Assembly (NCBI RefSeq): GCF_009931435.1
Contig: NZ_CP043414.1
Reading direction: 5' to 3' (one strand)
Origin: Escherichia coli
Lineage (GTDB): Bacteria > Pseudomonadota > Gammaproteobacteria > Enterobacterales > Enterobacteriaceae
DNA length: 64,000 bases
The notes under the pieces were generated by a model, which was not told the origin of the DNA, ran no database searches, and was given only the letters and a program-made list of their open reading frames with translations. The position numbers were made by a program, and so were the translations under genes. Numbering within the stretch: position 1 is the first letter of the stretch; each line of letters opens with the position of its first letter. Below, piece after piece: positions 1,406 through 46,088 of the stretch.

Positions 1406-1421
1406 TTTTCTCTATTTTCCT

Positions 1422-2318: not shown

Positions 2319-2923
2319 TACTTTTCAGCACTCATAAAAAGCACGCTCCGACTACGATTAATCGCAGTCCAGATAAGCAGAATTGAAGCAATGCTCCATA
2401 AAAGATTATTCCATTGCATCCACTGTGGATAAATGGCAACGGCCAGCCCCCACAACCCAAATATTAACGCACGATCGCTTTTGCCAAATGGACCGGCATA
2501 ACTGCGAATACCGTTAATCGTCTGCGCGAGTAAACCGCAAAACTCAGTCAATATGGTGCAAAATAACATGAGTATTACGAGTGATGCGTTACTTTCCGGT
2601 AAAAATAAAAACGGTAAATAAAGCGCAATATCGGAAATAACATCGCCAGTTTCATTCAAAATCGCCCCAAGACGTGTTTGCTGATTACACTCACGCGCCA
2701 TCATGCCATCCAGCGCATTGAGTGCCATACGGACAAAAAGCACGATGGGCAATAGCAAAAAGAGGATGGGGCGTGCCACCAACATCAACAGCAATCCGGT
2801 AAGAAGAGAAAGCGCCAGTGCAGCAAGAGTGATGTGATTCGCTGTAACATGGTGCTTATTAAGCCAAAACATCGTCGGCCTTAACAGCGACTGAAAGAGC
2901 GGTTTTATCTGGTAGAGCGTCAT
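2318..2923 (-). CDS. ynbA: CDP-alcohol phosphatidyltransferase family membrane protein
   Basis: CDP-OH phosphotransferase signature D-G-x2-A-R...G-x3-D-x3-D (LDGMMARECNQQTRLGAILNETGDVISD). Native start taken as MTLYQIKPLF; the track ORF starts 2 codons earlier at 2929. Confidence 0.88.
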   Translation of the reverse strand: MTLYQIKPLFQSLLRPTMFWLNKHHVTANHITLAALALSLLTGLLLMLVARPILFLLLPIVLFVRMALNALDGMMARECNQQTRLGAILNETGDVISDIALYLPFLFLPESNASLVILMLFCTILTEFCGLLAQTINGIRSYAGPFGKSDRALIFGLWGLAVAIYPQWMQWNNLLWSIASILLIWTAINRSRSVLFMSAEK

Positions 2924-3093
2924 TATCAATCCTTGATAATTCGGTTTGCGCTATGGTGCATCAATTCCCCTGACGGAGATATCGCAACACGCCGCTTCAT
3001 TAAAAATTCAGAATATATCAAGGTATTGGGGACTCACCGTCAGGAATGATTATCCCCAATAGATCAAGTGGTTAAAAATTATTACGCTGTTAT

Positions 3094-5406
3094 TCAATAC
3101 AACTCATCAAGTTTTCTCATCGCTTGTTCCCGTATTGCGCGCGTCTTACCGTTAAGCGCCAGCTGGCGAACTAAATCCAGTTCAGGGTTAACAAGCTCTA
3201 ACGCCAGCAAAGGATCACGTTTCAGCCTCGCCTTCAATACATCAACTGGAAAGCGGGGATTATTCATCGCCACAATCCACCACTCGGGATCAATTTCTGC
3301 CGCCAGTGCCGCAGGGGGGGTGTGGCGGTTGCTAAGTGCGCCGAACTTGAAAAATGTGAGATTGCTTTTCGCCAGTGTACTCCACCATATACGATCCGGT
3401 TGTTTTGCCAGTACATCCAGTTGTGCTAACGCATCGGGGTCGAGTGCATAATAAACACGTAACGCTTCGTTAACCTGCGCACGGGAACTGTTTTCCTGCC
3501 TCAGAAAAAACTTCGCCCAAATATCATTGCGTGGCGTGTTTTGCTGTAATTCCTTGAGAACAACAGCGGGTAAATCATCCCAACTAATTAATGCACTCTC
3601 TAAAAAGTCCCAGTCGTCCGAACGTATCAGAGAGGTGGCATTTAATAGCATCTGGTCATCAACTTCACCGTAGCTGATAAGCTCAGACAAAATCATATCA
3701 GCGCTGGTTTCATATGCATCTGAATCTGCTTTGGGATTATTTTTCCGATGCGATAAAGCACGTTGCCAAATTTTTTGTTTCATCGACGTGCTCAGATACT
3801 GATTTTTCGCCAGATTACTCCACCCCTCAGGATCGTTGAAACGTGTCAATAACCGTTGTAGAGCAGCGTCAGAGTGAATTACCTGCATATCCCGACAGCA
3901 AAAGTAGGCAGGGGATTTTTTCTCCATCCTTTTAACAAAATTAAACTGTAAGTTATCTGGCAATGCTAAAAATAACACACGTATTAGATCATCGTCATTC
4001 TCGAATTTTTGGTATAAATATACTGCTATTTTGTCACTCTCTTGTGGCGTCATCCGCAACAATTGACCATGGTGTTTCATCTCTGCCAGTTTGAACGCTA
4101 ATCTTGTGACAACATCGTTTGATGAATCGTTCGCCAACTGCATTGCCTGATTGTAGGTGAGTTGTCCTCCAGCACCGACTTGACGAATAGAGGAATCATC
4201 ACTGCGGATATAGCCATCAATAATGGATTCGGGCAATAACCACGCATCTTTATAAAGCTCCTGAATGATCATATCCCAATCTCTTTTCGCCAGAGTCATG
4301 ACGATATCCAGAGGGAGATTTTCACGTAGCGCAAGATTCAACGGACCGACACCATCAGGTAGATGACTCATTCGCGTCATTATTTCGACAGAGAGCGGTT
4401 CACGGTCGAGCAACCCCAGAACAACAGGCTGGTAACCTAATTGCTGATCGGTCAACTCCAGAATCTCATTGTCAGGCATATATCTCGCCATACTTGCAAT
4501 CGTTTTTTCATCATTGCTATTAATAAGTTGTTTGCGTAGGTTAGCTGAAATTCCTTTAAGCCTTGGGAGAGTTCGCATTATGGCAAGATCAAATGTCGCA
4601 ATATCTCGTCCTTCAAATGCAGCAACGTTGCCTTCATCCAGAATTTGCAATTCCTGCACTAACTCAGGAGAAGGCTTAGGGCGAAACAGCGCTTCTTTTT
4701 TCATCTGATTACAGACATTCCCTGCCATGCGAATATTGCTTCGCTTAAAAATTTCTTTCAGAGCATCTTCATCATTTATTAGACCCCAATAATATGCATC
4801 AGGATTTATTATCATCAGCGCTTTTTTGACATTTTCAGTGTCATTTTTATCACTCGCACGGACCATGAATTCACTATTTGTCGAAGACGCAACAACAGGT
4901 GCAATTATGTCATTGATAAATATCCCACGCGCATTAATACTCCCCTTAATCGTAGACGGATTATCGTAATATGAATCGATAAATACCAGTCCACTTGCAT
5001 TTATCGAACCGGTAATTAACAGTGGTGAATCCGTAACTATATTCGTTGCCGTCACGTTACCGAGAATAACCCATGGATTAGAAAGAGAGAAAGTGGAAAT
5101 ATTACCTTTGACTGTCAAATTGCCAAGAACAATCAATTTTTGATTACTCTCTATATTACCTTCTACCACTAAATCGCCACGATGCACTTTCCAGTCCGAT
5201 GCAGATAAACCGAAGGGGACAAGATTCACGCTACTGTTGATAGCTTGTTCAACTTGCTGTTTATCTTCAGCGGTAGCCGCAGATAAAAATGGATTAATAT
5301 CAACTGCATTTGCAACACATCGAAGTTCCGCCTGTACTGGAAGACTCAGGATAAACAGGGGAAGTAAACGTATCCAGCCGCAAATCCTGGCCTTAAACAT
5401 ATGCAC
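3094..5406 (-). CDS. ydbD: YdbD, large exported protein of unknown function
   Basis: 770-aa ORF with N-terminal signal-peptide-like segment (MHMFKARICGWIRLLPLFILSLPVQA). Position between ynbA and ydbC matches E. coli ydbD. No catalytic motif recognised. Confidence 0.85.
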   Translation of the reverse strand: MHMFKARICGWIRLLPLFILSLPVQAELRCVANAVDINPFLSAATAEDKQQVEQAINSSVNLVPFGLSASDWKVHRGDLVVEGNIESNQKLIVLGNLTVKGNISTFSLSNPWVILGNVTATNIVTDSPLLITGSINASGLVFIDSYYDNPSTIKGSINARGIFINDIIAPVVASSTNSEFMVRASDKNDTENVKKALMIINPDAYYWGLINDEDALKEIFKRSNIRMAGNVCNQMKKEALFRPKPSPELVQELQILDEGNVAAFEGRDIATFDLAIMRTLPRLKGISANLRKQLINSNDEKTIASMARYMPDNEILELTDQQLGYQPVVLGLLDREPLSVEIMTRMSHLPDGVGPLNLALRENLPLDIVMTLAKRDWDMIIQELYKDAWLLPESIIDGYIRSDDSSIRQVGAGGQLTYNQAMQLANDSSNDVVTRLAFKLAEMKHHGQLLRMTPQESDKIAVYLYQKFENDDDLIRVLFLALPDNLQFNFVKRMEKKSPAYFCCRDMQVIHSDAALQRLLTRFNDPEGWSNLAKNQYLSTSMKQKIWQRALSHRKNNPKADSDAYETSADMILSELISYGEVDDQMLLNATSLIRSDDWDFLESALISWDDLPAVVLKELQQNTPRNDIWAKFFLRQENSSRAQVNEALRVYYALDPDALAQLDVLAKQPDRIWWSTLAKSNLTFFKFGALSNRHTPPAALAAEIDPEWWIVAMNNPRFPVDVLKARLKRDPLLALELVNPELDLVRQLALNGKTRAIREQAMRKLDELY

Positions 5407-5463
5407 TCCATGCCATTAAAAAAGAAACAAAAGGGAAATGCATCTTTCCCTTTTGTATATTCG

Positions 5464-6324
5464 TTATTCTCGCGAAATACCATCCAACGTAGACAACACG
5501 TCCGCAGAAAGATGCAATTTTTCAGCAGCCATATTCTCCCGTAAATGCGCAACAGAAGATGTTCCAGGAATCAACAAAATATTCGGTGAACGTTGTAACA
5601 GCCACGCCAGCGCTACCTGCATTGGTGTCGCATTAAGGCTCGCAGCAACATCGGAAAGCGTGGAGGATTGCAGCGGCGTAAAGCCCCCGAGCGGGAAGAA
5701 CGGCACGTAGGCAATGCCGTCACGAGCCAAAGCATCAATCATTGCGTCATCAGCACGATGAGCAATGTTGTATTCGTTCTGCACGCAGACGATTTCGGCA
5801 ATCTTGCGTGCCTCTGCAACCTGCGTCGGTGTGACGTTGCTCAGGCCAATATGTTTTACCAGGCCTTGTTGTCGCATCTCTGCCAGCACGGTCAGGCTGG
5901 CTTCAATCGATCCTTCCGCTGGGCCATGACCATCCCCCATCATAACGCGCAGGTTGACCACATCCAGTACGTCCAGTCCGAGATTACGTAGATTATCGTG
6001 TACCGCTTTTTGCAACTCTGCCGGAGAAAATGCGGGCAACCAGGAGGCGTCCTCTCCACGCCGCGCCCCAATTTTAGTAACAATGGTCAGGTCGTCAGAG
6101 TAAGGATAAAGCGCTTCGCGGATAATCTGATTGGTGACGTGTGGACCATAAAAGTCACTGGTATCAATGTGATTAACGCCTAATGCCAGCGCCTCGCGCA
6201 GCACGGTTATAGCGACGTGGCGATCCCTTGGGGGACCAAAAACTCCAGGACCTGCCAGTTGCATCGCGCCATAACCAAGACGGTTAACGGATTTTGTACC
6301 GAGAGTAAATGTGTTGCTGCTCAT
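5464..6324 (-). CDS. ydbC: NAD(P)-dependent aldo-keto reductase
   Basis: 286-aa ORF with typical AKR fold sequence (GYGAMQLAG...HIDTSDFYG...GLSNV). Synteny next to ydbD and ydbA. Confidence 0.9.
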   Translation of the reverse strand: MSSNTFTLGTKSVNRLGYGAMQLAGPGVFGPPRDRHVAITVLREALALGVNHIDTSDFYGPHVTNQIIREALYPYSDDLTIVTKIGARRGEDASWLPAFSPAELQKAVHDNLRNLGLDVLDVVNLRVMMGDGHGPAEGSIEASLTVLAEMRQQGLVKHIGLSNVTPTQVAEARKIAEIVCVQNEYNIAHRADDAMIDALARDGIAYVPFFPLGGFTPLQSSTLSDVAASLNATPMQVALAWLLQRSPNILLIPGTSSVAHLRENMAAEKLHLSADVLSTLDGISRE

Positions 6325-6475
6325 CGCACCCTGCCCTGTAATAAAACGGATTAAGAAAAATCAGTATAGAAACGAAAAGAGTTAAATAATGCGAAGGCGT
6401 AAACAAGATTACTGGATGAGTTGCTCTATTGTCCTGAAAAACACCAAAACAAAACGCGTCAAGCGCCGCATCCGG

Positions 6476-6508
6476 CAATAAAAAACCGCAACCTGTATCA
6501 GCGTTGCG
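6476..6508 (-). terminator. Rho-independent terminator downstream of ydbA
   Basis: Perfect hairpin ccgcaacgctgatacaggttgcgg (rc of 6485-6508) followed on the minus strand by a T-run (A-run 6476-6484 on plus). A partial REP-like motif (gcgccgcatccggcaa) lies just 5' at 6455-6470. Confidence 0.7.
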
Positions 6509-6531
6509 GTTTATGCATCACATACTAAAAA

Positions 6532-9500
6532 TTAGAACGTTTTCTTGAAGTTCAGCATCACGCCTTTATCGCTGATACCATCCTCTTTCCAGTGGTAAGC
6601 ATCCAGATTCAGCGAACTTTCTTTGCTGCTGTACTTCACGCCGACGCTTGCCAGACTGTTGATGCCGCCGCCCTTCTGCCCATCATCGACATTAAAGTGC
6701 TGGCTGCCTGCGCCTGCCAGGCTTGCCGTGCGCTGGCTCTTGCTGTAGCTGAGGTTCGGCCCACCTTCCAGCGTGGCGTTCGCACTCCAGCCGTCTTTCC
6801 CTGCGTAGTCCAGCTTCAGCCCGACGATGCTGTCCACCGCCGTTTCGCTGCCGCTGTTCATGCTCAGGTTAAAGTCTCCGGCATTGCGCTCCTGATAGTC
6901 GCCTTCCAGCGTGTGACGCAGTTTCACACCCGCATATGGCGTGATTTTCAGCCCTTCGCGCGGTTCAAAGGTTTTCGCCCCTTCGCTGCGGAACTCCAGG
7001 TACTGTTGTTTCACATTCGTGTCTGCCGTCTTACTGATGTCGCCGTAAGCCACCGAACGGCTGCTGTCCAGTTGGTGAATATCGTAGCGCAGCGCGTTAT
7101 TCCAGCTCATACCGTTGTCAAAGGACATCTGATGCTTCAGGCCAAAGAACTGGCTGTAGCCGCCTGTAACACCATTATCACCCGCTTTCTGCGCACCATC
7201 GCCGTCCAGACGGGCGATACCGTACTCCAGGCTCATGGTCTGGTTTTCGCTCAGGTCGAGGGTTTTGCGCAGCGCCAGCATGTCGTACTCGGTATTATTC
7301 CCCAGCTCTGCACGCGGATCGCCTTTCGCCACCACGTTAAATGCCAGACCGTTGCCCATCTTCGGTGCTGCGTCTGCCAGCATACTAAAGCGATTGCTTA
7401 ACACACGCGCTTCGCGGAATACCGTGGTCGCCTGGCTACCGCTAATTTGCTTAAGTGCGCTGTTCAGCTCTGCAGTGGTGCCGACGTTCAGACTGGTATA
7501 CAGCTCATTGTTGGTGTAACCCGCATCCAGCGCTTTTGCCACGTCATTCACTGAGGCATCCGTCGCCACATCGGTGTAGGCTTTTTTGCTCATGGTCACG
7601 TCAACGTTGCCGCTGGCGTCGGTACTGCCTGTCGCCTGCCAGACAACAGATGTCGAAGTGATCGCTTGCGCATCGGTCAGGTTGCTGCCTTGCACCACAT
7701 CATCAAAGCTGGCGGTTTTGTCCGCCGTTCCCGCCGCAAAAGCAGTGTTGATCTCCACGCCTTTCATACTGGCGTTATTGACCATCAGCTTACCAGCGCT
7801 ACCATCGGCGTTCGTCCCCACCACGTAACCATTGAGGTTGTTCATGCCATCGTTGCGGCTAACGGAAGAAGAATGACTGTCGTCGTATGGCGTAATGGTG
7901 GGTTCTTCCGGCGCGGTAAAGTCGACATAGTGTACTTCCGTACCGTCTCCCCCTTCACCACTGCCCTCCATCACCGTGCCAGATTGTTTAATTAATCCGG
8001 AACCATTCACGCTGTCGTCAATATAAACAGTGCCGTTGTTAACAATATGACCATTGCTCCCGAGCTTGCTGAAGGCATATGAATTGCTGGCATATATATT
8101 GATGGTGCCGTTATTCTCAATCACCGCATCAGCCGTGGCATCGGATTCCAGTTGCATCCCTACCATGCCTGTCCTGGTAGTTCCTTGCGTGCCAACGTTA
8201 ATGGTGCCGTTGTTGATCATTTTGGCTTTACCGTGCGCCGACATCGCCACATTACTATTTTTGTCGATATTAATAATGCCGTCGTTTATTGCCTTGCTGG
8301 CCGTGTTTGATGTCAGGATCTGCCCGTTGATGAAGCCAGACTGGCCATTATAGAACGTATGCCCATCACCACCGGTGCTAATTCTCATGTCACCTTCTAC
8401 TGTCCCCCAATTATTAAAATGTCCTGTCCACAGCGCATTCGTCGCCACCGTTGCCACACTGCCTTCCAGATTGTTGAAGGTGCCACCTTTATCAACCGAT
8501 GCATTATTTACGGTACCAGCATTATTAAAGGTAGAGGCTGCAGCAAAAGTTATTTTCTCTACTTTTCCACCGGCCTGATTATTCATTACGGCAGACCCGG
8601 AAGAACCTTTCCAGGCGTTCACCGTTCCGGTGTTATAAAAATTGCTGGCCCACTGGTCAACCGTGTTGATGCTGCCTGAGTTGTGAATAACCGATCCTGC
8701 AACAGTCGTTCCGACTTGCCCGCTCACCGTACCTTCGTTAGTGAACACGCCGCCATCCACAGAAACAGTTTTTGTCGTGCCGTGGTTGGTGTATTCCCCA
8801 CCGGTTGCGATATCAACCTCAATAATACTGCCCGTGGTTTCATTGACCAGATGACCAAAGTCAGCCACGGTGACAGGTCCCCCGGTGACCGTACCCGTGT
8901 TTGTTACCAGGGTTTCGGCGGTTGCCGTGATATCAGTAGTACCGCCATATGAATACAGGTTAAGCGTTTCCCCGTCAGCCGAAATAATGTCACCATTTCT
9001 CCAGCTTAATGAAACAAACCCGTCAGTCGGGTTATAGGCGTTATTGTCCTGGCATTTCCCAAAAGTACAGATGGATCCGTAATTAACGATAGTCCCGCTG
9101 CCATCGTTATAGAACGCCTGCCCGTTTTCAGCATTAATATTGATGATGCCCGTCTGATCATTAATCGCAGTGGCACCATTGTAAACAGCCATGCCGACCA
9201 ATTTATTTGGCCCCAGCGTATCATCATCATTTTCATTTACTTCCAGATTTATAGTTCCCTGGTTAATAATAATGTTACCTGGCTTCATCGCAGCCATACC
9301 GGCACCGGAATTATAGAGTGTTATTTCACCACCCTGCTGGTTAATGGCGGTAGAATTAACGCTGGCACCAGAACTGTCTGTACCCACAGCCATCCCGACA
9401 GCATAATCTTTGGCGCTGTCATGAGCGATATTGGACGCCAGACTGGAAGTATCGTTTTCATCAACCCATAATGCGTCAATGAAAATCTTACCCATATTGT

Positions 9501-18089: not shown

Positions 18090-21000
18090 ATGATTACTAT
18101 TGACGGTAATGGCGCGGTTGCTTCGGTGGCGTTTCGCACCAGTGAAGTTATCGCCATCTACCCTATTACCCCCAGTTCCACGATGGCAGAACAGGCTGAT
18201 GCATGGGCCGGAAACGGCTTGAAAAACGTTTGGGGAGACACACCACGCGTGGTTGAAATGCAGTCGGAAGCGGGTGCTATCGCTACCGTGCATGGTGCTT
18301 TGCAAACTGGCGCCCTCTCAACATCGTTTACGTCATCGCAGGGTTTGCTGCTGATGATCCCAACGCTGTACAAACTGGCAGGCGAACTGACGCCGTTTGT
18401 CCTGCATGTTGCGGCTCGTACCGTTGCCACACATGCACTCTCTATTTTTGGCGATCATTCCGACGTCATGGCAGTGCGCCAGACGGGTTGCGCGATGTTG
18501 TGTGCAGCAAACGTCCAGGAGGCGCAAGACTTTGCTCTCATTACGCACATTGCGACGCTGAAAAGTCGCGTGCCATTTATTCATTTCTTTGATGGTTTCC
18601 GCACCTCCCACGAGATCAATAAAATTGTCCCGCTGGCCGATGACACTATTCTTGAACTGATGCCGCAGGCAGAAATTGATGCTCATCGCGCCCGTGCACT
18701 CAACCCGGAACATCCGGTGATCCGCGGTACGTCCGCCAATCCTGACACTTATTTCCAGTCTCGCGAAGCCACCAACCCATGGTACAACGCAGTCTATGAC
18801 CATGTTGAACAGGCAATGAATGATTTCGCTGCCGCGACAGGTCGCCAGTATCAGCCGTTTGAGTATTACGGGCATCCACAAGCGGAACGGGTGATTATCC
18901 TGATGGGCTCTGCCATTGGCACATGTGAAGAAGTGGTTGATGAATTGCTGACCCGTGGCGAAAAAGTCGGCGTGCTGAAAGTTCGCCTGTACCGCCCCTT
19001 CTCCGCCAAACACTTACTGCAAGCATTGCCGGACTCTGTTCGGATAGTGGCGGTGCTGGATCGCACCAAAGAGCCAGGTGCGCAAGCGGAACCCCTGTAT
19101 CTGGATGTGATGACTGCACTGGCAGAAGCCTTTAATAATGGCGAGCGCGAAACCCTGCCCCGTGTCATCGGCGGGCGCTATGGTCTTTCATCCAAAGAAT
19201 TTGGCCCGGACTGTGTACTGGCGGTATTTGCCGAGCTCAACGCGGCTAAACCGAAAGCGCGCTTTACGGTTGGTATTTACGATGATGTGACCAATCTGTC
19301 ACTTCCGTTACCGGAAAACACCCTGCCAAACTCGGCGAAACTGGAAGCCTTGTTTTATGGTCTTGGTAGTGATGGCAGCGTTTCCGCGACCAAAAACAAT
19401 ATCAAAATTATCGGTAATTCCACGCCGTGGTACGCACAGGGCTATTTTGTTTACGACTCCAAAAAGGCAGGCGGCCTGACGGTTTCTCACCTTCGCGTGA
19501 GCGAGCAGCCGATTCGTTCCGCTTATCTCATTTCCCAGGCTGATTTTGTTGGCTGTCACCAGTTGCAGTTTATCGACAAATATCAGATGGCTGAACGTTT
19601 GAAACCTGGCGGCATTTTCCTGCTCAACACGCCGTACAGCGCAGAGGAAGTGTGGTCGCGCTTACCGCAGGAAGTTCAGGCCGTGCTAAACCAGAAAAAA
19701 GCGCGTTTCTATGTGATTAACGCGGCGAAAATTGCCCGCGAATGTGGCCTGGCGGCCCGTATTAATACTGTCATGCAGATGGCATTTTTCCATTTGACAC
19801 AAATTCTGCCTGGCGATAGCGCCCTGGCCGAATTGCAGGGCGCGATTGCCAAAAGCTACAGCAGCAAAGGCCAGGATCTGGTGGAACGCAACTGGCAGGC
19901 TCTGGCACTGGCGCGTGAATCGGTAGAAGAAGTTCCGCTGCAGCCGGTTAATCCGCACAGCGCCAATCGACCGCCTGTGGTTTCCGATGCTGCTCCTGAT
20001 TTCGTGAAAACCGTTACCGCTGCGATGCTCGCCGGACTTGGCGATGCTCTCCCCGTTTCGGCGCTGCCGCCAGACGGCACCTGGCCGATGGGTACCACCC
20101 GCTGGGAAAAACGCAATATTGCCGAAGAGATCCCCATCTGGAAAGAGGAACTCTGTACCCAATGTAACCACTGCGTTGCCGCTTGCCCACACTCAGCTAT
20201 TCGCGCCAAAGTGGTGCCGCCTGAAGCAATGGAAAATGCCCCTGCCAGCCTGCATTCGCTGGATGTAAAATCGCGTGATATGCGCGGGCAGAAATATGTC
20301 TTGCAGGTAGCTCCGGAAGATTGCACCGGCTGTAACCTGTGCGTCGAAGTTTGCCCGGCGAAAGACCGTCAGGATCCAGAGATTAAAGCCATCAATATGA
20401 TGTCGCGCCTGGAACATGTCGAGGAAGAGAAAATCAATTACGACTTCTTCCTGAATTTACCAGAAATCGATCGCAGCAAACTGGAACGTATTGATATTCG
20501 TACATCGCAACTGATTACACCGCTGTTTGAATATTCAGGTGCTTGCTCTGGTTGTGGCGAGACGCCGTATATTAAATTGCTGACTCAGCTCTATGGCGAT
20601 CGGATGTTGATCGCTAACGCTACGGGTTGTTCTTCAATTTATGGCGGTAACCTGCCCTCTACACCGTATACTACCGATGCCAACGGTCGTGGACCGGCAT
20701 GGGCGAACTCGCTGTTTGAAGATAACGCCGAATTTGGCCTTGGTTTCCGCCTGACGGTCGATCAACACCGTGTCCGCGTGCTGCGTCTGCTGGATCAATT
20801 TGCCGATAAAATCCCGGCGGAATTACTGACTGCGTTGAAATCAGACGCCACGCCAGAGGTTCGTCGTGAACAGGTTGCAGCTTTACGTCAGCAACTCAAC
20901 GATGTTGCCGAAGCACATGAACTGCTACGTGATGCAGATGCACTGGTGGAAAAATCGATCTGGCTGATTGGTGGCGATGGCTGGGCTTACGATATCGGCT

Positions 21001-21614
21001 TTGGCGGTTTGGATCATGTATTGAGTTTGACGGAAAACGTCAACATTCTGGTGCTGGATACGCAATGCTATTCCAATACCGGTGGTCAGGCGTCAAAAGC
21101 CACGCCGCTTGGCGCGGTGACTAAGTTTGGCGAGCACGGCAAACGTAAAGCGCGTAAAGATCTTGGCGTCAGTATGATGATGTACGGTCATGTTTATGTG
21201 GCGCAGATTTCTCTCGGCGCGCAGCTCAACCAGACGGTGAAAGCGATTCAGGAAGCGGAAGCGTATCCGGGGCCATCGCTGATCATCGCTTATAGCCCGT
21301 GTGAAGAGCATGGTTACGATCTGGCACTCAGTCACGACCAGATGCGCCAACTCACTGCTACCGGCTTCTGGCCGCTATATCGCTTTGATCCGCGTCGTGC
21401 CGATGAAGGCAAACTGCCGCTGGCGCTGGATTCACGACCGCCGTCAGAAGCACTGGAAGAAACGTTACTTCACGAGCAGCGTTTCCGTCGTCTGAATTCG
21501 CAGCAGCCAGAAGTGGCAGAACAGTTATGGAAAGATGCCGCAGCTGATTTGCAAAAACGCTATGACTTCCTGGCACAAATGGCCGGAAAAGCGGAAAAAA
21601 GCAACACCGATTAA
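18090..21614 (+). CDS. pfo: Pyruvate:flavodoxin/ferredoxin oxidoreductase (PFOR)
   Basis: 1174-aa ORF. Two 4Fe-4S ferredoxin CxxCxxCxxxCP motifs (CTQCNHCVAACP, CTGCNLCVEVCP). TPP-binding region (GGDGWAYDIG). MITIDGNGAVASVAFR N-terminus typical of PFOR. Confidence 0.96.
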   Translation: MITIDGNGAVASVAFRTSEVIAIYPITPSSTMAEQADAWAGNGLKNVWGDTPRVVEMQSEAGAIATVHGALQTGALSTSFTSSQGLLLMIPTLYKLAGELTPFVLHVAARTVATHALSIFGDHSDVMAVRQTGCAMLCAANVQEAQDFALITHIATLKSRVPFIHFFDGFRTSHEINKIVPLADDTILELMPQAEIDAHRARALNPEHPVIRGTSANPDTYFQSREATNPWYNAVYDHVEQAMNDFAAATGRQYQPFEYYGHPQAERVIILMGSAIGTCEEVVDELLTRGEKVGVLKVRLYRPFSAKHLLQALPDSVRIVAVLDRTKEPGAQAEPLYLDVMTALAEAFNNGERETLPRVIGGRYGLSSKEFGPDCVLAVFAELNAAKPKARFTVGIYDDVTNLSLPLPENTLPNSAKLEALFYGLGSDGSVSATKNNIKIIGNSTPWYAQGYFVYDSKKAGGLTVSHLRVSEQPIRSAYLISQADFVGCHQLQFIDKYQMAERLKPGGIFLLNTPYSAEEVWSRLPQEVQAVLNQKKARFYVINAAKIARECGLAARINTVMQMAFFHLTQILPGDSALAELQGAIAKSYSSKGQDLVERNWQALALARESVEEVPLQPVNPHSANRPPVVSDAAPDFVKTVTAAMLAGLGDALPVSALPPDGTWPMGTTRWEKRNIAEEIPIWKEELCTQCNHCVAACPHSAIRAKVVPPEAMENAPASLHSLDVKSRDMRGQKYVLQVAPEDCTGCNLCVEVCPAKDRQDPEIKAINMMSRLEHVEEEKINYDFFLNLPEIDRSKLERIDIRTSQLITPLFEYSGACSGCGETPYIKLLTQLYGDRMLIANATGCSSIYGGNLPSTPYTTDANGRGPAWANSLFEDNAEFGLGFRLTVDQHRVRVLRLLDQFADKIPAELLTALKSDATPEVRREQVAALRQQLNDVAEAHELLRDADALVEKSIWLIGGDGWAYDIGFGGLDHVLSLTENVNILVLDTQCYSNTGGQASKATPLGAVTKFGEHGKRKARKDLGVSMMMYGHVYVAQISLGAQLNQTVKAIQEAEAYPGPSLIIAYSPCEEHGYDLALSHDQMRQLTATGFWPLYRFDPRRADEGKLPLALDSRPPSEALEETLLHEQRFRRLNSQQPEVAEQLWKDAAADLQKRYDFLAQMAGKAEKSNTD

Positions 21615-21642
21615 ATGCTCTGGATAAGGATTATCCAATTCT

Positions 21643-21680
21643 AAAAAAAAGCCCGGACGACTGTTCGGGCTTGTCTTTTT
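21643..21680. terminator. Bidirectional Rho-independent terminator (pfo on plus, micC on minus)
   Basis: Hairpin gcccggacgactgttcgggc (21651-21670) flanked by an A-run (21643-21650) and a T-rich run (21671-21680). Confidence 0.85.
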
Positions 21681-21752
21681 ATATGTTGGAAAATCAGTGG
21701 CAATGCAATGGCCCAACAGAAAATAAAATCTGTGACAATAAAGGCATATAAC
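21643..21752 (-). ncRNA. micC: MicC small regulatory RNA
   Basis: Minus-strand sequence reads GTTATATGCCTTTATTGTCACAGATTTTATTTTCTGTTGGGCCATTGCATTGCCACTGATTTTCCAACATAT...GCCCGAACAGTCGTCCGGGCTTTTTTTT, which I recognise as MicC. It lies in the pfo-ompN spacer, divergent from ompN. Confidence 0.88.
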
Positions 21753-21979
21753 TCGCGCAGAATAACGTATAGCAAATTAAAAGTATAATTTTTATTTTGT
21801 ATGTATTATCTTCGATACATTCACCAGACTTATTATCATTTCAGAGGAATTATTTGATTAAGGTTTTACTTAAGGCGTAACAAATGATATTTATCGGCTA
21901 ACTGAACTTCTCCTTTAGGATGTTTTCATTCCCCGAAATGGGGATAAAAGGCAAATAAAATAACTAAAGGATTTATTCA

Positions 21980-23113
21980 ATGAAAAGCAAAGTACTGGCA
22001 CTTTTAATTCCTGCCCTGCTCGCCGCAGGTGCTGCACATGCAGCCGAAGTTTATAATAAAGACGGCAACAAATTAGATCTGTATGGCAAAGTTGATGGCC
22101 TGCATTATTTTTCTGATAATTCAGCGAAAGATGGCGACCAGAGCTATGCGCGTCTGGGTTTTAAAGGCGAAACCCAAATTAACGATCAACTTACTGGCTA
22201 CGGTCAATGGGAATACAATATTCAGGCAAACAACACTGAATCTTCAAAAAACCAGTCATGGACCCGTCTGGCATTTGCCGGACTGAAATTTGCAAATTAC
22301 GGTTCTTTCGATTACGGACGTAATTATGGCGTACTGTACGACATCGAAGGCTGGACCGATATGCTGCCTGAATTTGGCGGTGACTCTTATACCAATGCAG
22401 ACAACTTTATGACTGGTCGTGCCAATGGCGTCGCGACTTATCGTAACACTGATTTCTTCGGTCTGGTAAATGGTCTGAACTTCGCGGTGCAGTATCAAGG
22501 TAACAACGAAGGAGCCAGTAATGGTCAGGAAGGCACCAACAACGGACGTGATGTTCGCCATGAAAACGGTGACGGCTGGGGTCTTTCCACAACATATGAT
22601 TTAGGCATGGGCTTTAGCGCTGGTGCGGCATACACCTCTTCTGACCGCACCAATGACCAGGTTAACCATACTGCGGCTGATGGTGATAAAGCAGACGCGT
22701 GGACTGCTGGGCTAAAATACGATGCTAACAATATTTACCTGGCAACCATGTATTCAGAAACGCGTAATATGACCCCGTTTGGCGACAGCGATTATGCTGT
22801 TGCAAACAAAACCCAGAACTTTGAAGTCACTGCACAGTACCAGTTTGATTCTGGTCTGCGTCCGGCAGTCTCTTTCCTGATGTCTAAAGGCCGTGACCTG
22901 CACGCTGCCGGTGGTGCAGACAACCCGGCAGGTGTTGATGATAAAGATCTGGTTAAATACGCCGATGTTGGCGCGACTTACTATTTCAACAAAAATATGT
23001 CCACCTACGTTGACTATAAAATCAACCTGTTGGATGAAGATGACAGCTTCTACGCTGCCAACGGCATCTCTACCGATGATATTGTCGCTTTAGGTCTGGT
23101 TTATCAGTTCTAA
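21980..23113 (+). CDS. ompN: Outer membrane porin OmpN (OmpC/OmpF family)
   Basis: 377-aa ORF, signal peptide [21 protein letters not shown], general-porin sequence ending ...GLVYQF. Confidence 0.95.
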
Positions 23114-23121
23114 ATCCTCCT

Positions 23122-23146
23122 GCCCGCTGTTATGGCGGGCTTTTTC
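23122..23146 (+). terminator. Rho-independent terminator after ompN
   Basis: Hairpin gcccgctgttatggcgggc followed by ttttt. Confidence 0.8.
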
Positions 23147-23172
23147 TGCTTATTCTTCCTCCTTTGATCTAA

Positions 23173-23688
<516 letters not shown>

Positions 23689-23694
23689 CACTAA

Positions 23695-23720
23695 CGCCCG
23701 CACATTGCTGCGGGCTTTTT
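23695..23720 (+). terminator. Rho-independent terminator after uspF
   Basis: Hairpin gcccgcacattgctgcgggc followed by ttttt. Confidence 0.8.
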
Positions 23721-23863
23721 GATTCATTTCGCAAATGTGCTGACATTTTCCCCTCTAATCCGTACCATACACGCCACAGTTTTTATATCAGATTTCTTAT
23801 GCTGGGCGTTCCGGCATGACGCATACTCTTCTGATGCCATATAACGAATTGAGTCGCTTTTAA

Positions 23864-24799
23864 ATGTCGCAAAATCAAGAAATTAGTAAGAAAGAACAAT
23901 ACAATCTCAACAAATTACAAAAACGTCTGCGTCGTAACGTGGGCGAAGCCATTGCTGACTTCAATATGATTGAAGAAGGCGATCGCATCATGGTTTGCCT
24001 CTCCGGGGGTAAAGACAGCTATACCATGCTGGAGATTCTGCGCAATTTGCAGCAAAGCGCGCCAATCAATTTTTCGCTGGTGGCTGTTAACCTCGATCAA
24101 AAGCAACCGGGCTTCCCGGAACACGTTCTGCCCGAGTATCTTGAAAAGCTGGGCATTGAGTACAAGATTGTGGAAGAGAACACTTACGGTATCGTGAAAG
24201 AGAAGATTCCGGAGGGCAAAACCACTTGCTCACTGTGTTCTCGTCTTCGTCGCGGAATTCTTTACCGTACCGCAACGGAACTGGGAGCGACGAAGATCGC
24301 GCTGGGTCACCATCGTGACGATATCCTGCAAACGTTGTTCTTAAATATGTTCTACGGCGGCAAGATGAAAGGTATGCCTCCGAAACTGATGAGCGATGAT
24401 GGCAAACATATTGTGATTCGTCCGCTGGCCTACTGCCGCGAGAAAGATATTCAGCGCTTTGCCGATGCAAAAGCGTTCCCGATTATTCCGTGCAACCTGT
24501 GCGGTTCACAGCCTAACCTGCAACGTCAGGTGATTGCTGACATGTTGCGTGACTGGGATAAACGTTATCCGGGGCGTATCGAGACGATGTTCAGCGCGAT
24601 GCAGAATGTGGTGCCGTCGCATCTGTGCGATACCAACCTGTTCGATTTCAAAGGCATTACCCACGGTTCTGAAGTGGTTAACGGGGGTGATCTGGCGTTT
24701 GATCGCGAAGAGATCCCTCTACAACCGGCGGGTTGGCAGCCTGAAGAAGATGAAAATCAGTTGGATGAGTTACGACTGAATGTGGTTGAAGTGAAATAA
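23864..24799 (+). CDS. ttcA: tRNA 2-thiocytidine(32) synthetase TtcA
   Basis: 311-aa ORF. PP-loop SGGKDS motif ([11 protein letters not shown]). Fe-S cluster cysteines ([16 protein letters not shown]). Confidence 0.95.
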
Positions 24800-24885
24800 C
24801 CCGGATAGCGCCCGATGCGCAAGCTTATCGGGCTACTCTTATGGAGGCCGGATAAGACGCGGCCAGCGTCGCATCCGGCAATCCC
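24800..24885. repeat. REP (repetitive extragenic palindromic) elements
   Basis: Two units with the GCCGGATAAG...GCATCCGGCA-type palindromic core (cccggatagcgcccgatgcgcaagcttatcgggc; gccggataagacgcggccagcgtcgcatccggca) between the convergent ttcA and dbpA. Confidence 0.75.
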
Positions 24886-24927
24886 GAAGAAGATGTTTAC
24901 TCTTGCACCCTGCGATTCAACATTTCA

Positions 24928-26301
24928 TTATTTTAATAACCGCACCCGGCACGTTTTTCCTTTAATCTTCCCGCCCTGTAACTGTTTCCATGCTTTATGA
25001 GCAACAGCCTGACGCACCGCGACATAGACATGCGCCGGATGCACGGCGATTTTGCCAATATCTGCGCCATCAAGCCCGATATCTCCTGTCAGCGCACCTA
25101 ATACATCACCCGGGCGCATTTTGGCTTTTTTCCCGCCATCGATACATAACGTTGCCATTTCTGCTTCCAGCGGCACAATGGAACTATTAACTGGCGGCGT
25201 TTGCCAGTTAAGTTTTATCTGCAACATGTCAGAAATGATATTGGCCCGCTGTGCTTCTTCCGGGGCACAGAAACTGATCGCCAGACCGCTATTTCCTGCA
25301 CGCGCTGTACGACCGATGCGATGTACATGAACTTCAGGGTCCCACGCCAGTTCAAAGTTCACTACCAGCTCAAGCGATTTAATATCAAGACCACGCGCAG
25401 CAACATCCGTCGCGACCAGCACACGAGCGCTACCGTTAGCAAAACGTACCAGGGTCTGATCGCGGTCACGTTGCTCCAGATCGCCATGTAACGACAATGC
25501 ACTTTGCCCTATGTCATTCAGCGCGTCGCAGACAGCCTGACAATCTTTTTTGGTATTGCAAAACACCACGCAAGAGGATGGCTGATGCAAACTTAATAAC
25601 CGTTGCAACAGCGGAATTTTGCCTTTGCTGGATGTCTCATAAAATTGTTGTTCAATGGGAGGCAGAGCATCTGTTGAGTCAATTTCAATCGCCAATGGCT
25701 CGCGTTGAACTCGTCCGCTGATTGCGGTGATGGCTTCCGGCCAGGTTGCCGAAAACAGAAGCGTCTGTCGAGATGCTGGCGCAAAACGGATAACATCATC
25801 AATGGCATCGCTAAATCCCATATCCAGCATGCGATCGGCTTCATCCATCACCAGCATATTCAACGCATCCAGTGATACCGTGCCTTTTTGCAGATGGTCC
25901 AGCAAACGACCTGGGGTTGCCACGATAATATGCGGCGCATGTTGCAACGAATCACGCTGCATACCGAACGGTTGACCACCGCACAAAGTCAAAATTTTGG
26001 TATTTGGCAGAAAACGCGCCAGCCGACGCAATTCACCTGCCACCTGATCCGCCAGTTCACGCGTAGGGCACAGCACTAAAGCCTGGGTCTGAAATAGCGA
26101 CGCATCAATTTTCTGTAGCAGCCCGAGGCCAAAAGCCGCCGTTTTGCCGCTGCCGGTTTTCGCCTGCACGCGAACATCTTTTCCGGCAAGGATCGCCGGA
26201 AGCGCGGCAGCCTGCACCGGCGTCATAGTCAAATAACCCAACTCATTAAGGTTCGTGAGTTGGGCGGGAGGCAAAACATTCAGGGTAGAAAAAGCGGTCA
26301 C
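24928..26301 (-). CDS. dbpA: ATP-dependent 23S rRNA-specific DEAD-box RNA helicase DbpA
   Basis: 457-aa ORF. Walker A (AKTGSGKT), DEAD box (LVMDEADRM), SAT motif, C-terminal RNA-binding domain. Confidence 0.96.
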   Translation of the reverse strand: MTAFSTLNVLPPAQLTNLNELGYLTMTPVQAAALPAILAGKDVRVQAKTGSGKTAAFGLGLLQKIDASLFQTQALVLCPTRELADQVAGELRRLARFLPNTKILTLCGGQPFGMQRDSLQHAPHIIVATPGRLLDHLQKGTVSLDALNMLVMDEADRMLDMGFSDAIDDVIRFAPASRQTLLFSATWPEAITAISGRVQREPLAIEIDSTDALPPIEQQFYETSSKGKIPLLQRLLSLHQPSSCVVFCNTKKDCQAVCDALNDIGQSALSLHGDLEQRDRDQTLVRFANGSARVLVATDVAARGLDIKSLELVVNFELAWDPEVHVHRIGRTARAGNSGLAISFCAPEEAQRANIISDMLQIKLNWQTPPVNSSIVPLEAEMATLCIDGGKKAKMRPGDVLGALTGDIGLDGADIGKIAVHPAHVYVAVRQAVAHKAWKQLQGGKIKGKTCRVRLLK

Positions 26302-26562
26302 AATCTGTTCTCGTGGTCATCGACGCAAAAATTAGCAAGCGCGTATCCTCGCAGATCTACGCTCACGATGCGACAATTTAATCGGTTCTTCATCGGGTGG
26401 TGGGTCAGGCATGGGTTGCGGGCGAGGGATTGGATCGGGCACTGGAACAGGATCGCCAGGAATCGGTTCAGGGACAGGAATTTGCAAATAAATGAGTGTC
26501 GTCATATTTCCCTCCGGTCATTGGGTGGACTCTTAAAGGGTAGACGCTGATATATAACAGGC

Positions 26563-26684
26563 AAAAAAAAGCCGACTCATCAAAGTCGGCGTCGTACGAA
26601 TCAATTGTGCTATGCAGTAATTCAAAAAAGGAAGTAAGACAATATGGAGCGCAACGCCCATCGCTTGACGTTGCATTCACCTGC
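26563..26684 (-). ncRNA. fnrS: FnrS small regulatory RNA (FNR-activated)
   Basis: Minus strand reads GCAGGTGAATGCAACGTCAAGCGATGGGCGTTGCGCTCCATATTGTCTTACTTCCTTTTTTGAATTACTGCATAGCACAATTGATTCGTACGACGCCGACTTTGATGAGTCGGCTTTTTTTT. Intrinsic terminator at the 3' end; lies in the dbpA-zntB spacer. Confidence 0.88.
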
Positions 26685-26719
26685 AAGAGAGATATTGCCC
26701 TGAATGGGTAGAGAGTTTA

Positions 26720-26733
26720 TTGACTTCGCTCAA
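26720..26733. promoter_or_regulatory. FNR binding site (class II position) upstream of fnrS
   Basis: TTGAC-N4-CTCAA (consensus TTGAT-N4-ATCAA), centred about 42 bp upstream of the inferred FnrS 5' end. Confidence 0.7.
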
Positions 26734-26779
26734 ACTTTGCGGCGTTTTTGTATACAGATAGTAGGGAAAATTGCTGTTG

Positions 26780-27784
<1,005 letters not shown>

Positions 27785-28017
27785 TTATTTTGTAGTCTAG
27801 CCTTCTGGCCCTGTTACGCAACATCTCATCACCCCATTACCCTGAAATGATTAATAAAATTCTGTCTAAATTGAATACAAAAAGCAAAATGCTTTTCCAT
27901 ATACAAACCGTGTGAAGTGTTAAATAGCGTCTATCATTATCAGAATTATCTGATCATATGACGTGGCTTTATTGCGATCGGATAGCAACAAAAATTGATA
28001 AAAATAACGGGATCTCA

Positions 28018-30061: not shown

Positions 30062-30157
30062 ACCGGCGCAGAGGAGACCATGCCGGATTTAAGACGCGGA
30101 TGCACTGCTGTGTGTACTGTAGAGTCTGGCGGATGTCGACAGACTCTATTTTTTTAT
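30062..30157 (+). ncRNA. mcaS: McaS small regulatory RNA
   Basis: ACCGGCGCAGAGGAGAC...GGATGCACTGCTGTGTGTACTGTAGAGTCTGGCGGATGTCGACAGACTCTATTTTTTTAT, with terminal hairpin plus T-run. Located in the smrA-abgR spacer. Exact ends approximate. Confidence 0.8.
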
Positions 30158-38448: not shown

Positions 38449-38691
38449 GATGTAATCCTTGTGCAGACAAATTTCTTGTTACCTAACCGTAACAATACCA
38501 TGACATTTCACCGTTGTCTGCTCTGAAAACCTCACCTCTTAGCTGGATTTACAATCAACGCATTGATTAGTTAGCTAATGTTGCTACTTCCTTCCCTGAC
38601 TATTGATGATCTGAATGAATTGTCGCGGTAAAATATCCCCGCCAGGGGTTTCCGGCATGACGACAATTATCTGGAGGAGCCTGATAAAACA

Positions 38692-41382: not shown

Positions 41383-41564
41383 AAGTTACCCTCAAACCTG
41401 CGTTAATAATCATGCGTAATTATTTGTTTCGCCTTAAAGAAATGCAAACAACTTCCGGCAAAAAAGTGATACAAGATCGATAACATAGCGTTGAAGAAAA
41501 GGATTTGATAATCCGCAAAATTTGCACAACACTGCCTGTAATACTTCCTGAACCAGAGACGATC

Positions 41565-43351: not shown

Positions 43352-43855
43352 ATGTCACAAACCGTTCATTTCCAGGGCAACCCGGTTACAGTCGCCAATT
43401 CCATCCCGCAGGCGGGTAGCAAAGCGCAGACTTTTACTCTCGTGGCAAAAGATCTGTCTGACGTCACCCTCGGTCAGTTTGCGGGTAAACGCAAAGTGCT
43501 GAACATTTTCCCGAGTATTGATACCGGTGTTTGCGCCGCATCAGTACGTAAGTTTAACCAACTGGCAACCGAGATCGACAACACCGTTGTGCTGTGTATC
43601 TCTGCCGATCTTCCGTTCGCCCAGTCTCGTTTCTGCGGCGCAGAAGGTCTGAACAACGTTATCACCCTCTCCACTTTCCGTAACGCTGAATTCCTGCAAG
43701 CCTACGGTGTGGCAATTGCTGATGGCCCACTGAAAGGTCTGGCAGCGCGTGCCGTTGTGGTTATTGATGAAAATGACAATGTGATTTTCAGCCAGCTGGT
43801 GGATGAAATCACCACCGAGCCGGATTACGAAGCAGCTCTGGCTGTACTGCGCTAA
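43352..43855 (+). CDS. tpx: Thiol peroxidase Tpx (atypical 2-Cys peroxiredoxin)
   Basis: 167-aa ORF. Peroxidatic Cys in [10 protein letters not shown], resolving Cys in LCISADLPF. Confidence 0.97.
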
Positions 43856-43863
43856 ACAACTGT

Positions 43864-43901
43864 GCCGTTCACTGAATCACCACCGGTGAACGGCAGTTTT
43901 T
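43864..43901 (+). terminator. Rho-independent terminator after tpx
   Basis: Stem gccgttcac / gtgaacggc followed by agttttt. Confidence 0.8.
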
Positions 43902-44008
43902 GATCTACCAGTCCCACTATTTTCCAGAGTTCCTGCCACTATTCCCCCTAACCGTTGTGCATTAAGATTGCTCTTTGCCATTATTAGCCCAGCGGAGTGA
44001 TGACTATT

Positions 44009-46051
44009 ATGGATGATAAACAAATTACGGTCTGGCTTAAACACAATTGCTGTTCAACGGACATTCCTGCCATTGCCGAGGCACTAACGAACCATGCAGA
44101 ATGGCTTTTAGAGCTAGCGCCAGATCCTATTGATCAAGGTAGTTCATGCTTACCGCCGGCAGCTGCAGCTGGTATTTTTCTTGGCGCAGCGGCGATGGTT
44201 CACTGCGGCGAGGCCAGTGGTGCAGAAACCTGGCTCGAAGCAGCCATTACTGATTACCATTTCTTTAATCCAAACGGATATAGTTCATGGAGAGGCAGTA
44301 CGCCTGTTTTTACAGCAATATCGCGTTACCCGGCATTAAAAATGGTGTTATTTAACGCCGCTTGCGCAATGGAAGACTGGAATAAAGCATCCGCTGTTCT
44401 TGAATCGCTTTTCAATGCCAGCGATGTCCCGAAAGATAACCCTGTCGCCCCCAATTTTACCCCTTATGCGCTGAAAGATATTATCGCGGATAACCTCCCG
44501 TTAGGGCCTGCTTATTATGATGAAACCTGGTTGCTGGCAAAACAAGCGTGGTTAATTAATGCGGGCGTTCTGGATGAGCGAACATGCAATACCTGGAAGC
44601 AATATACCCGCCATTTGCGCCATTTGATCCACAATGCACAGTTTTCCGATGCGATCTCTTTTGTACGCAGTAAAAAAGAACCATTAAATCATATCCATAC
44701 CTACTCAGACTTTTATCTCTATGCGATTGGTTTATTTTCTTCTACTGATCAGCTAAGTGAAGCGCTAACCTGGGTAAAACAATTAATCCGCAACAATGAT
44801 GGTCATTTCCATGATCTTTTCGTTTCAACTGGCGCAAAGCGCCGCATAAAGCCTGAACTTAGTACCTTGCTGAATAATCTCTTGCACAGCGCAGAGTTTC
44901 AGGCGTTGCAGGATAAATATCTCACCGTCGGACATGATGTTGTGCATTCTGGTCCCTTCATGTCACTTTATGAAAAGGTTCTTGGCGGTAAGTCCCGAAA
45001 GCGCTGCGCGATTAGTCGAAAATTAATCTCGCCCGGCGAAGCGGTTTATGAATATCGTCAGCTGGATAGTGTGGAATATATTGCAGCGAAAGCGGCCTTT
45101 CAGACATCTGAGCTAAATAATATCGCCCACCGGCATCATAATGATAGTTATCAGTGGCATGAATTTGCCGCCCAATGGCCTCGTCGGGGTTCACTTTCTC
45201 ACCCAGATATTGCCCGTTATTTGTTTGAGCGCCAGGAAGGAAAATGCTTTGATGCCGCAGAGTTTATACCACTGATTGCGGAACCGTTTGTCTTTCCGAT
45301 GCGTTTCATATGGGTTGCCGGGTTGTCCTTTGAATTACATCAGTATCCGGATGCCTATTTCGTAAATGACAATATGGCGGGTGAATTTGTTAATCTCTGC
45401 TGGATGGCTATGAAATGCGGACATGCTGGCGACATTTTCAAACAACTGGCCCACGAGCCGCATGACGTTGCTGACCCTATTTACGCCATGCTCGCCACGT
45501 TTGACCGCTCTGATTGCCGTAGCGCCGCCGCCGCGCACTTTGGACAACCGGAACTACCGGAAATAATGGCACTGGCTTTCAGTTCGAGGTTATCGCTCGA
45601 CAGCGTACTTACCATCGCTGAGTTTGGTAAAAATCAGCCGCGATTTTCACATGCGCTAGCAACGGCCCTCCTGCGTTACAACCTGCACATCTACTCAAAC
45701 TATATGCCGCAGGTTAACTGGTACCTTCAGGGGCTGGAACACTATGCTTTGGCAAAAGGCGGTCAACTTTTAAATTTCTTTGTGCATATTCCAGAACAAA
45801 TTCCCGTTCTGGCGACCATGCTGGAACATGGCGTATTAGTGCGTGGGATCGGTGAAGGTGCCTATGATGGTTATGATAATTCAGCAAATTCATTTCATCA
45901 TGCCGCCGTGATGCACTGCCTTGAGCACGCGCCGGAAAAAGTCCGCTACTGGATGGAAACACCCTGGATTCAGAACTATTTAGTGAATGCGCCGCTGCGT
46001 CAAACGGCGCGCCATGTGGAAGCCTGGCATAAAAAGTTTGGCATCAAATGA
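44009..46051 (+). CDS. Hypothetical protein of about 680 aa, no recognisable domain; accessory gene in the tpx-tyrR spacer
   Basis: Uninterrupted 2-kb ORF. SD ggag at 43994-43997, 11 nt before ATG 44009 (MDDKQITVWLKHNCC...); in-frame GTG 43997 and ATG 44000 are alternative starts. No signal peptide, no obvious TM segments, no Walker/HTH/nuclease motif that I can identify. Rare codons AGA and CTA occur in frame. Confidence 0.75.
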   Translation: MDDKQITVWLKHNCCSTDIPAIAEALTNHAEWLLELAPDPIDQGSSCLPPAAAAGIFLGAAAMVHCGEASGAETWLEAAITDYHFFNPNGYSSWRGSTPVFTAISRYPALKMVLFNAACAMEDWNKASAVLESLFNASDVPKDNPVAPNFTPYALKDIIADNLPLGPAYYDETWLLAKQAWLINAGVLDERTCNTWKQYTRHLRHLIHNAQFSDAISFVRSKKEPLNHIHTYSDFYLYAIGLFSSTDQLSEALTWVKQLIRNNDGHFHDLFVSTGAKRRIKPELSTLLNNLLHSAEFQALQDKYLTVGHDVVHSGPFMSLYEKVLGGKSRKRCAISRKLISPGEAVYEYRQLDSVEYIAAKAAFQTSELNNIAHRHHNDSYQWHEFAAQWPRRGSLSHPDIARYLFERQEGKCFDAAEFIPLIAEPFVFPMRFIWVAGLSFELHQYPDAYFVNDNMAGEFVNLCWMAMKCGHAGDIFKQLAHEPHDVADPIYAMLATFDRSDCRSAAAAHFGQPELPEIMALAFSSRLSLDSVLTIAEFGKNQPRFSHALATALLRYNLHIYSNYMPQVNWYLQGLEHYALAKGGQLLNFFVHIPEQIPVLATMLEHGVLVRGIGEGAYDGYDNSANSFHHAAVMHCLEHAPEKVRYWMETPWIQNYLVNAPLRQTARHVEAWHKKFGIK

Positions 46052-46060
46052 ACGTTGCCG

Positions 46061-46079
46061 CTGCGCCTGAACGGCGCAG
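46061..46079. terminator. GC-rich hairpin between convergent stops of the hypothetical ORF and tyrR
   Basis: ctgcgcc-tgaac-ggcgcag (7-bp GC stem). No adjacent T-run, so function as a terminator is uncertain. Confidence 0.35.
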
Positions 46080-46088
46080 CCAGCACAA

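Follow-up and report, generated by a model that had tools for sequence, protein, structure and literature searches.

Prophages 21 and e14 both reside in icd, where the prophage duplicates the displaced end of the gene, so that the function of icd is preserved and the opposite junction retains a short pseudogene stub. The Rac prophage of Escherichia coli follows the same principle at ttcA, in that the replacement gene end is carried by the phage. The end concerned is different: phage 21 and e14 replace the 3´ end of icd, whereas Rac replaces the 5´ end of ttcA and hence its promoter region too.

Rac is located between ttcA and ttcC´ (Liu et al., 2015; Sci Rep 5:16074, PMC4632033). In that study, excision of Rac was shown by experiment to alter four N-terminal residues of TtcA, the cause being an imperfect match between attL and attR. 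Excision mediated by IntR and the excisionase XisR (YdaQ) regenerates the form of TtcA that is carried by rac-free strains of E. coli and Shigella, and this post-excision form was termed the “ancient” copy. The empty state was reported from E. coli O103:H2 12009, UMN026, Shigella flexneri, and others, and the two forms of TtcA differ in fitness under carbenicillin (Liu et al., 2015). The RefSeq annotation of ttcC´ in K-12 reflects the same understanding.

Here we describe the corresponding locus in a 64-kb stretch of an E. coli-type chromosome, referred to below as the window. Positions 23689-23960 almost certainly represent the unoccupied attB of Rac-family lambdoid prophages, located within the initial 50 nt of ttcA. 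An earlier note on this DNA had read the site as an empty attB, and we reach the same reading from a 175-bp spacer, collinearity with K-12 on both arms, a native TtcA N-terminus, and the absence of Rac sequence from the 64 kb. The empty site is thus real and was rightly interpreted; it is also ordinary and already published. The window shares with the TtcA´ state described by Liu et al. (2015), that of K-12 Δrac and of naturally rac-free strains, the locus, the uspF and ttcA flanks, the MSQNQEIS N-terminus, and the four-residue difference. It departs from that state at the level of alleles only, namely in two bases of the att core (T23905 and C23908), in a run of five rather than six T, and in I98 and G290 of TtcA.

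The uspF-ttcA locus and the Rac junctions of K-12

The left flank of the att site is formed by uspF (23254-23688, + strand), encoding universal stress protein F. The gene was identified by the NCBIfam equivalog model NF011581 (303 bits against a cutoff of 166, with residues 1-144 of 144 covered) and by synteny with K-12 uspF. The start that gives the annotated length is the ATG at 23254, the mechanical start of the open reading frame is a GTG at 23182, and the stop is the TGA ending at 23688. To the right lies an intact ttcA of 311 codons (23864-24799, + strand), which encodes tRNA 2-thiocytidine(32) synthetase and has a 5´ end of the ancestral kind, free of prophage sequence. The equivalog model NF007972 matches it over its full length (513 bits; cutoff, 272), and the translation contains the PP-loop motif CLSGGKDS at residues 45-52 and the cysteine-pair motifs CSLCS and CNLCG. 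The product is a predicted enzyme of the TtcA family, a PP-loop ATPase. The spacer between the two genes (23689-23863) is exactly 175 bp, and the geometry that had been given for the locus, with uspF ending at 23688 and ttcA starting at 23864, was found to be exact upon re-reading, both genes now being identified by protein models.

The gene order around the site is ydbK/nifJ, MicC, ompN, uspF / ttcA, dbpA, ynaL, FnrS, zntB, dgcM, smrA, McaS, abgR, which is the K-12 order minus Rac. The adjacency of uspF and ttcA is likewise annotated in strain 2013C-4282 and in four other genomes with an empty site.

In K-12 MG1655 (NC_000913.3), the “cryptic prophage Rac” is annotated at 1411899-1434958 between ttcA and ttcC´/uspF, in the layout ttcA / intR-xisR ... 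Rac ... ynaE-ynaM / ttcC´ / uspF. Its annotated length of 23,060 bp agrees with the figure of about 23 kb between uspF and ttcA that had been quoted for K-12. ttcC´ is a 51-nt pseudogene (b4638) situated 176 bp from uspF. By megablast, window positions 18874-23913 match the uspF side of the K-12 site and positions 23871-27813 match the ttcA side, so that the 26-bp att core at 23888-23913 is covered by both matches. In a three-way alignment, the window is identical to the uspF/ttcC´ side of K-12 from uspF through the core, except for one T in a T-run and two bases of the core; past the core, it follows the ttcA side of K-12 rather than the end of Rac. The window is therefore in the configuration of attB, being collinear with the uspF-side junction through the core and, starting at the core, with the ttcA-side junction.

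The comparison with the attL and attR junctions of K-12, proposed earlier as a check, thus shows the window to be the bacterial arm of both: 23689-23913 matches the uspF/ttcC´ arm and 23888 onward the ttcA arm. What sets K-12 apart is the prophage of 23,060 bp together with a ttcA start and upstream region derived from the phage, none of which is present in the window. The segment is not identical to a Rac junction of K-12, and K-12 neither has the same TtcA N-terminus nor carries Rac elsewhere, which were the two outcomes named in advance as speaking against the reading. DNA from the interior of Rac has no megablast match anywhere in the 64-kb window, and a tblastn search of the window with 24 Rac proteins (IntR, XisR, RecE, RecT, RacR, KilR, SieB, TrkG, StfR, PinR, and others) gave no match at E ≤ 1e-3. 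This search for a relocated Rac, also proposed earlier, covered the 64 kb of the window; a related element at another locus, potB, is reported for strain CFT073. The strain is thus one without Rac at the canonical site, which accordingly lacks recET, kilR, ralRA, trkG, and the rest of the Rac cargo.

The exchange of the gene end is most easily seen in the protein. TtcA of the window and of K-12 are identical at 305 of 311 residues, and four of the six differences fall at residues 2, 3, 6, and 8 (S2Q, Q3E, E6Q, and S8T), the others being I98V and G290C. The K-12 protein begins MQENQQITKKEQ, which is supplied by the phage, and the start of the window protein is identical to the translation of K-12 ttcC´; the phage-type and ancestral starts can be summarized as MQENQQIT and MSQNQEIS, respectively. 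Because the TtcA start of K-12 differs and the ttcC´ remnant equals the window start, integration of Rac can be concluded to replace the first 16 codons. The segment that is duplicated and replaced by Rac-family phages, judged from the alignments and the ttcC´ annotation, runs from the start codon to the end of the core (23864-23913, + strand) and is equivalent to K-12 ttcC´. The earlier statements that Rac replaces the 5´ end of ttcA and that the window has the native, Rac-free N-terminus are borne out on this basis, and the replacement can be specified as the first 16 codons, with four residue changes, plus the whole upstream region.

These features are accounted for by the following course of events. 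The tyrosine integrase IntR recombines the phage attP with a core of approximately 26 bp within codons 9-17 of ttcA, and strand exchange probably takes place somewhere in this core. The phage brings a start of its own that resembles that of ttcA (an ATG followed by 16 codons), such that ttcA can still be translated after integration. Integration swaps the four N-terminal residues, parts ttcA from its native upstream region, and leaves the 51-nt ttcC´ stub beside uspF. In the window, integration has either never occurred or been precisely reversed, and uspF, its terminator, the ttcA upstream region, and the ancestral reading frame are contiguous. We assume that a core with two substitutions relative to K-12 is fully competent as a target of IntR.

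Occupancy of the site in E. coli and variation in the att core

The state of the site was surveyed in complete E. coli genomes. A uspF-ttcA query is contiguous, with no gene in between, in 2,487 of the 5,413 genomes with a match (46%), and in the remaining ones the match breaks at query position 772, corresponding to window position 23871. A full-length intR/xisR abutting ttcA is present in 1,832 genomes (K-12 intR-junction query, coverage at least 80%). A third class, to which about 6 of 30 evenly spaced records belong, retains no more than the last ~373 bp of the match to the intR junction, along with a phage-type ttcA start. The census thus comprises approximately 46% empty sites, 34% sites with a full integrase, and 20% sites with a decayed remnant, and the window is a member of the first and largest class. 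Its best match among complete E. coli genomes is 98.9% identical over 24.3 kb.

Strains 95-3322 (L005, 4757-6942) and CUVET18-565 (L006, 4756-6942) exemplify the decayed class. In both, uspF and ttcA are separated by ~2.3 kb of debris: a sit-type permease pseudogene with a frameshift, a DUF1627 fragment, and, in the last ~230 bp, an integrase 3´ stub that is annotated as truncated. A phage-type ttcA start follows, and there is no ttcC´ stub. At the other extreme, strain 2024CK-00188 carries a complete Rac-family prophage of ~53 kb at ttcA, with racR, kilR, recE, trkG, and head and tail genes. This prophage also contains the iron/manganese transporter genes sitABCD as cargo at its uspF-proximal end (L007, 1344-4793), which accounts for the sit-type permease pseudogene in the decayed remnants. 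Such remnants, although those examined are from other strains, probably explain the “CFT073 exception” of Liu et al. (2015).

The 26-bp attB core (23888-23913, + strand) reads AAGAAAGAACAATACAATCTCAACAA in the window and AAGAAAGAACAATACAACCTGAACAA at both Rac junctions of K-12. The two agree at 24 of 26 bases, the differences being T23905 (Asn14, AAC to AAT) and C23908 (Leu15, CTG to CTC), both synonymous. Over 100 bp around the core, identity to the window reaches 99% or more in only 72 of 5,408 E. coli records and is perfect in none (best listed match, 99.0%). Most empty sites fall in the 98% class for this segment and have a K-12-like core, as checked in three that were sampled: by alignment, MRE162, strain 298, and O157:H7 FRIK2455 (3/3) all have the K-12-like CCTG. 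TCTG is found at the empty sites of 2013C-4282 and ECCNB12-2, and among the five empty sites compared with it by alignment, TCTC occurs in the window only. An exact scan with a 66-nt att segment gave no match among species-representative genomes. Between the window and its nearest genome, 2013C-4282, just two positions differ in 23100-24900, one of which is 23908. C23908 was seen in no other genome and is a private synonymous SNP of the window.

The empty attB could have come about in two ways. A Rac-family prophage may once have been integrated and later lost through precise excision by IntR/XisR, restoring attB and the ancestral TtcA. Rac does excise precisely in K-12 and regenerates the same N-terminus (Liu et al., 2015), and with approximately 54% of complete E. 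coli genomes either occupied or bearing a remnant, past occupancy is plausible in any lineage. We nevertheless consider such a history rather unlikely. The window has no positive trace of it, since the spacer and the 5´ end of ttcA are the same as at other empty sites, and nothing in the core appears to be derived from a phage, C23908 being absent from the K-12 junctions as well as from the five empty sites compared. Precise excision leaves no scar and regenerates the same sequence, so that a never-occupied (“naive”) and a precisely cured site would look identical and could not be told apart from a single genome.

Another conceivable reason for the empty state is that Rac-family integrases use this attB poorly or not at all on account of T23905 and C23908. 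In lambda-type systems, mismatches between attP and attB in the overlap region inhibit recombination, and the att segment is unusual in lacking a perfect match among the 5,408 records and in differing at 23908 even from the nearest genome. However, T23905 is found at occupied junctions of both types. Synthetic junction queries gave exact matches in occupied genomes in at least 12 cases on the ttcA side and at least 8 on the uspF side, and 2024CK-00188 has T23905 at both junctions around its complete prophage. Because the same base stands at occupied junctions, T23905 appears to be compatible with occupancy and to present no barrier to integration, and its interpretation as an integration-escape allele was rejected on the strength of these junctions of both types, 100% identical and in one case flanking a 53-kb prophage. 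Furthermore, a variant core is not required for a site to be empty, since most empty sites have the K-12-like core, and ordinary drift readily explains C23908, one synonymous substitution at a third codon position. A refractory attB is thus very improbable. We attach equally little credence to the extended version, in which C23908 and T23905 would lie in the integrase overlap and constitute a naturally integration-resistant attB, by which the host would escape a very common prophage through synonymous changes in ttcA. Decay of a prophage by imprecise deletion, common as it is in E. coli with its intR stubs and phage-type ttcA 5´ ends, can be dismissed for the window, which has a 175-bp spacer, no integrase fragment, and a native N-terminus, and whose alignment with K-12 and other E. 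coli sites refutes it.

The unoccupied attB raises no new biological question, and its practical value is small. The attB sequence of the window can serve as a clean reference, and a census of the states of the site is added.

The spacer and the upstream region of ttcA

The spacer begins with an intrinsic terminator of uspF (23696-23720, + strand), found by a terminator scan and by RNA folding. A hairpin with a G+C-rich stem of 7 bp and a loop of 6 nt (GCCCGCA-CATTGC-TGCGGGC, 23696-23715) is followed by TTTTT. The fold has a free energy of -14.1 kcal/mol (z = -3.9), which was matched by none of 200 shuffles, and the terminator sequence is unchanged across all compared E. coli genomes.

The remainder of the spacer (23721-23863, + strand) corresponds by alignment to the spacer between uspF and ttcC´ in K-12, the sole difference being a T5 run at 23781-23785 where K-12 has T6, and the spacer as a whole is essentially invariant across the compared strains. 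We infer that this segment comprises the native upstream region of ttcA, with its promoter and 5´ UTR. The promoter is predicted to lie within the spacer. A consensus scan returned a weak sigma-70-like match (CTGACA-17-TACCAT, 23740-23768, 9/12), the kind of match that occurs at about chance level, and a promoter assignment based on this sole candidate was dropped. The earlier description of the spacer as containing only the uspF terminator was correct as to the strong hairpin and too narrow otherwise, as the native ttcA promoter and 5´ UTR must also fit in. An Rfam scan at gathering thresholds, made to look for an unannotated RNA or other element, gave no match in 23689-23863. Elsewhere in the window, the scan identified three small RNAs only, all scoring above the gathering threshold and at their expected syntenic positions: MicC (21635-21755, - strand), FnrS (26567-26684, - strand), and McaS (30062-30157, + strand).

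In K-12, the counterpart of 23721-23863 remains beside ttcC´, ~23 kb away from ttcA, and probably faces the ynaM-ynaE end of Rac. The distance from the intR stop to the ttcA start in K-12 is only 51 bp, all of it phage DNA (L001, 3949-4001), and transcription of K-12 ttcA would consequently have to come from within or through intR. The window has an ancestral ttcA with its native upstream region attached, which bears on the expression of TtcA and on the carbenicillin-related phenotype of Liu et al. (2015).

Other differences from K-12 in the window

Apart from the Rac site, the window departs from K-12 at several places. At 41440-41469, K-12 pgrR, ycjY, ymjD, and ymjC (~2.4 kb) are absent and mppA adjoins mpaA, as in 2013C-4282. 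The K-12 copy of IS5 between ynaI and ynaJ (IS5F/insH4) is also absent, and the flanking K-12 matches overlap by 4 bp at 38571-38574, as expected for the target-site duplication of IS5. Between tpx and tyrR, a window-specific segment of ~2.2 kb (43849-46091) contains an open reading frame of 684 amino acids (43997-46051, + strand) that has no counterpart in K-12 and no match in Pfam or PADLOC; a “hypothetical protein” gene is found at the same position after tpx in 2013C-4282.

A further difference is at the left end, where 1-12672 is unlike the ydbL neighbourhood of K-12 and the K-12 feaR-feaB-tynA-paa cluster is absent. Here, ydbL is followed by an intact autotransporter of the BigA/YdbA type (1,829 amino acids; 6532-12024, - strand) with the Pfam domains BigA_N and BigA_beta. 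Beyond it are pdxI, ydbD, and genes resembling ynbA and ynbB. The order is that of 2013C-4282, and the autotransporter region is only ~93% identical to that genome.
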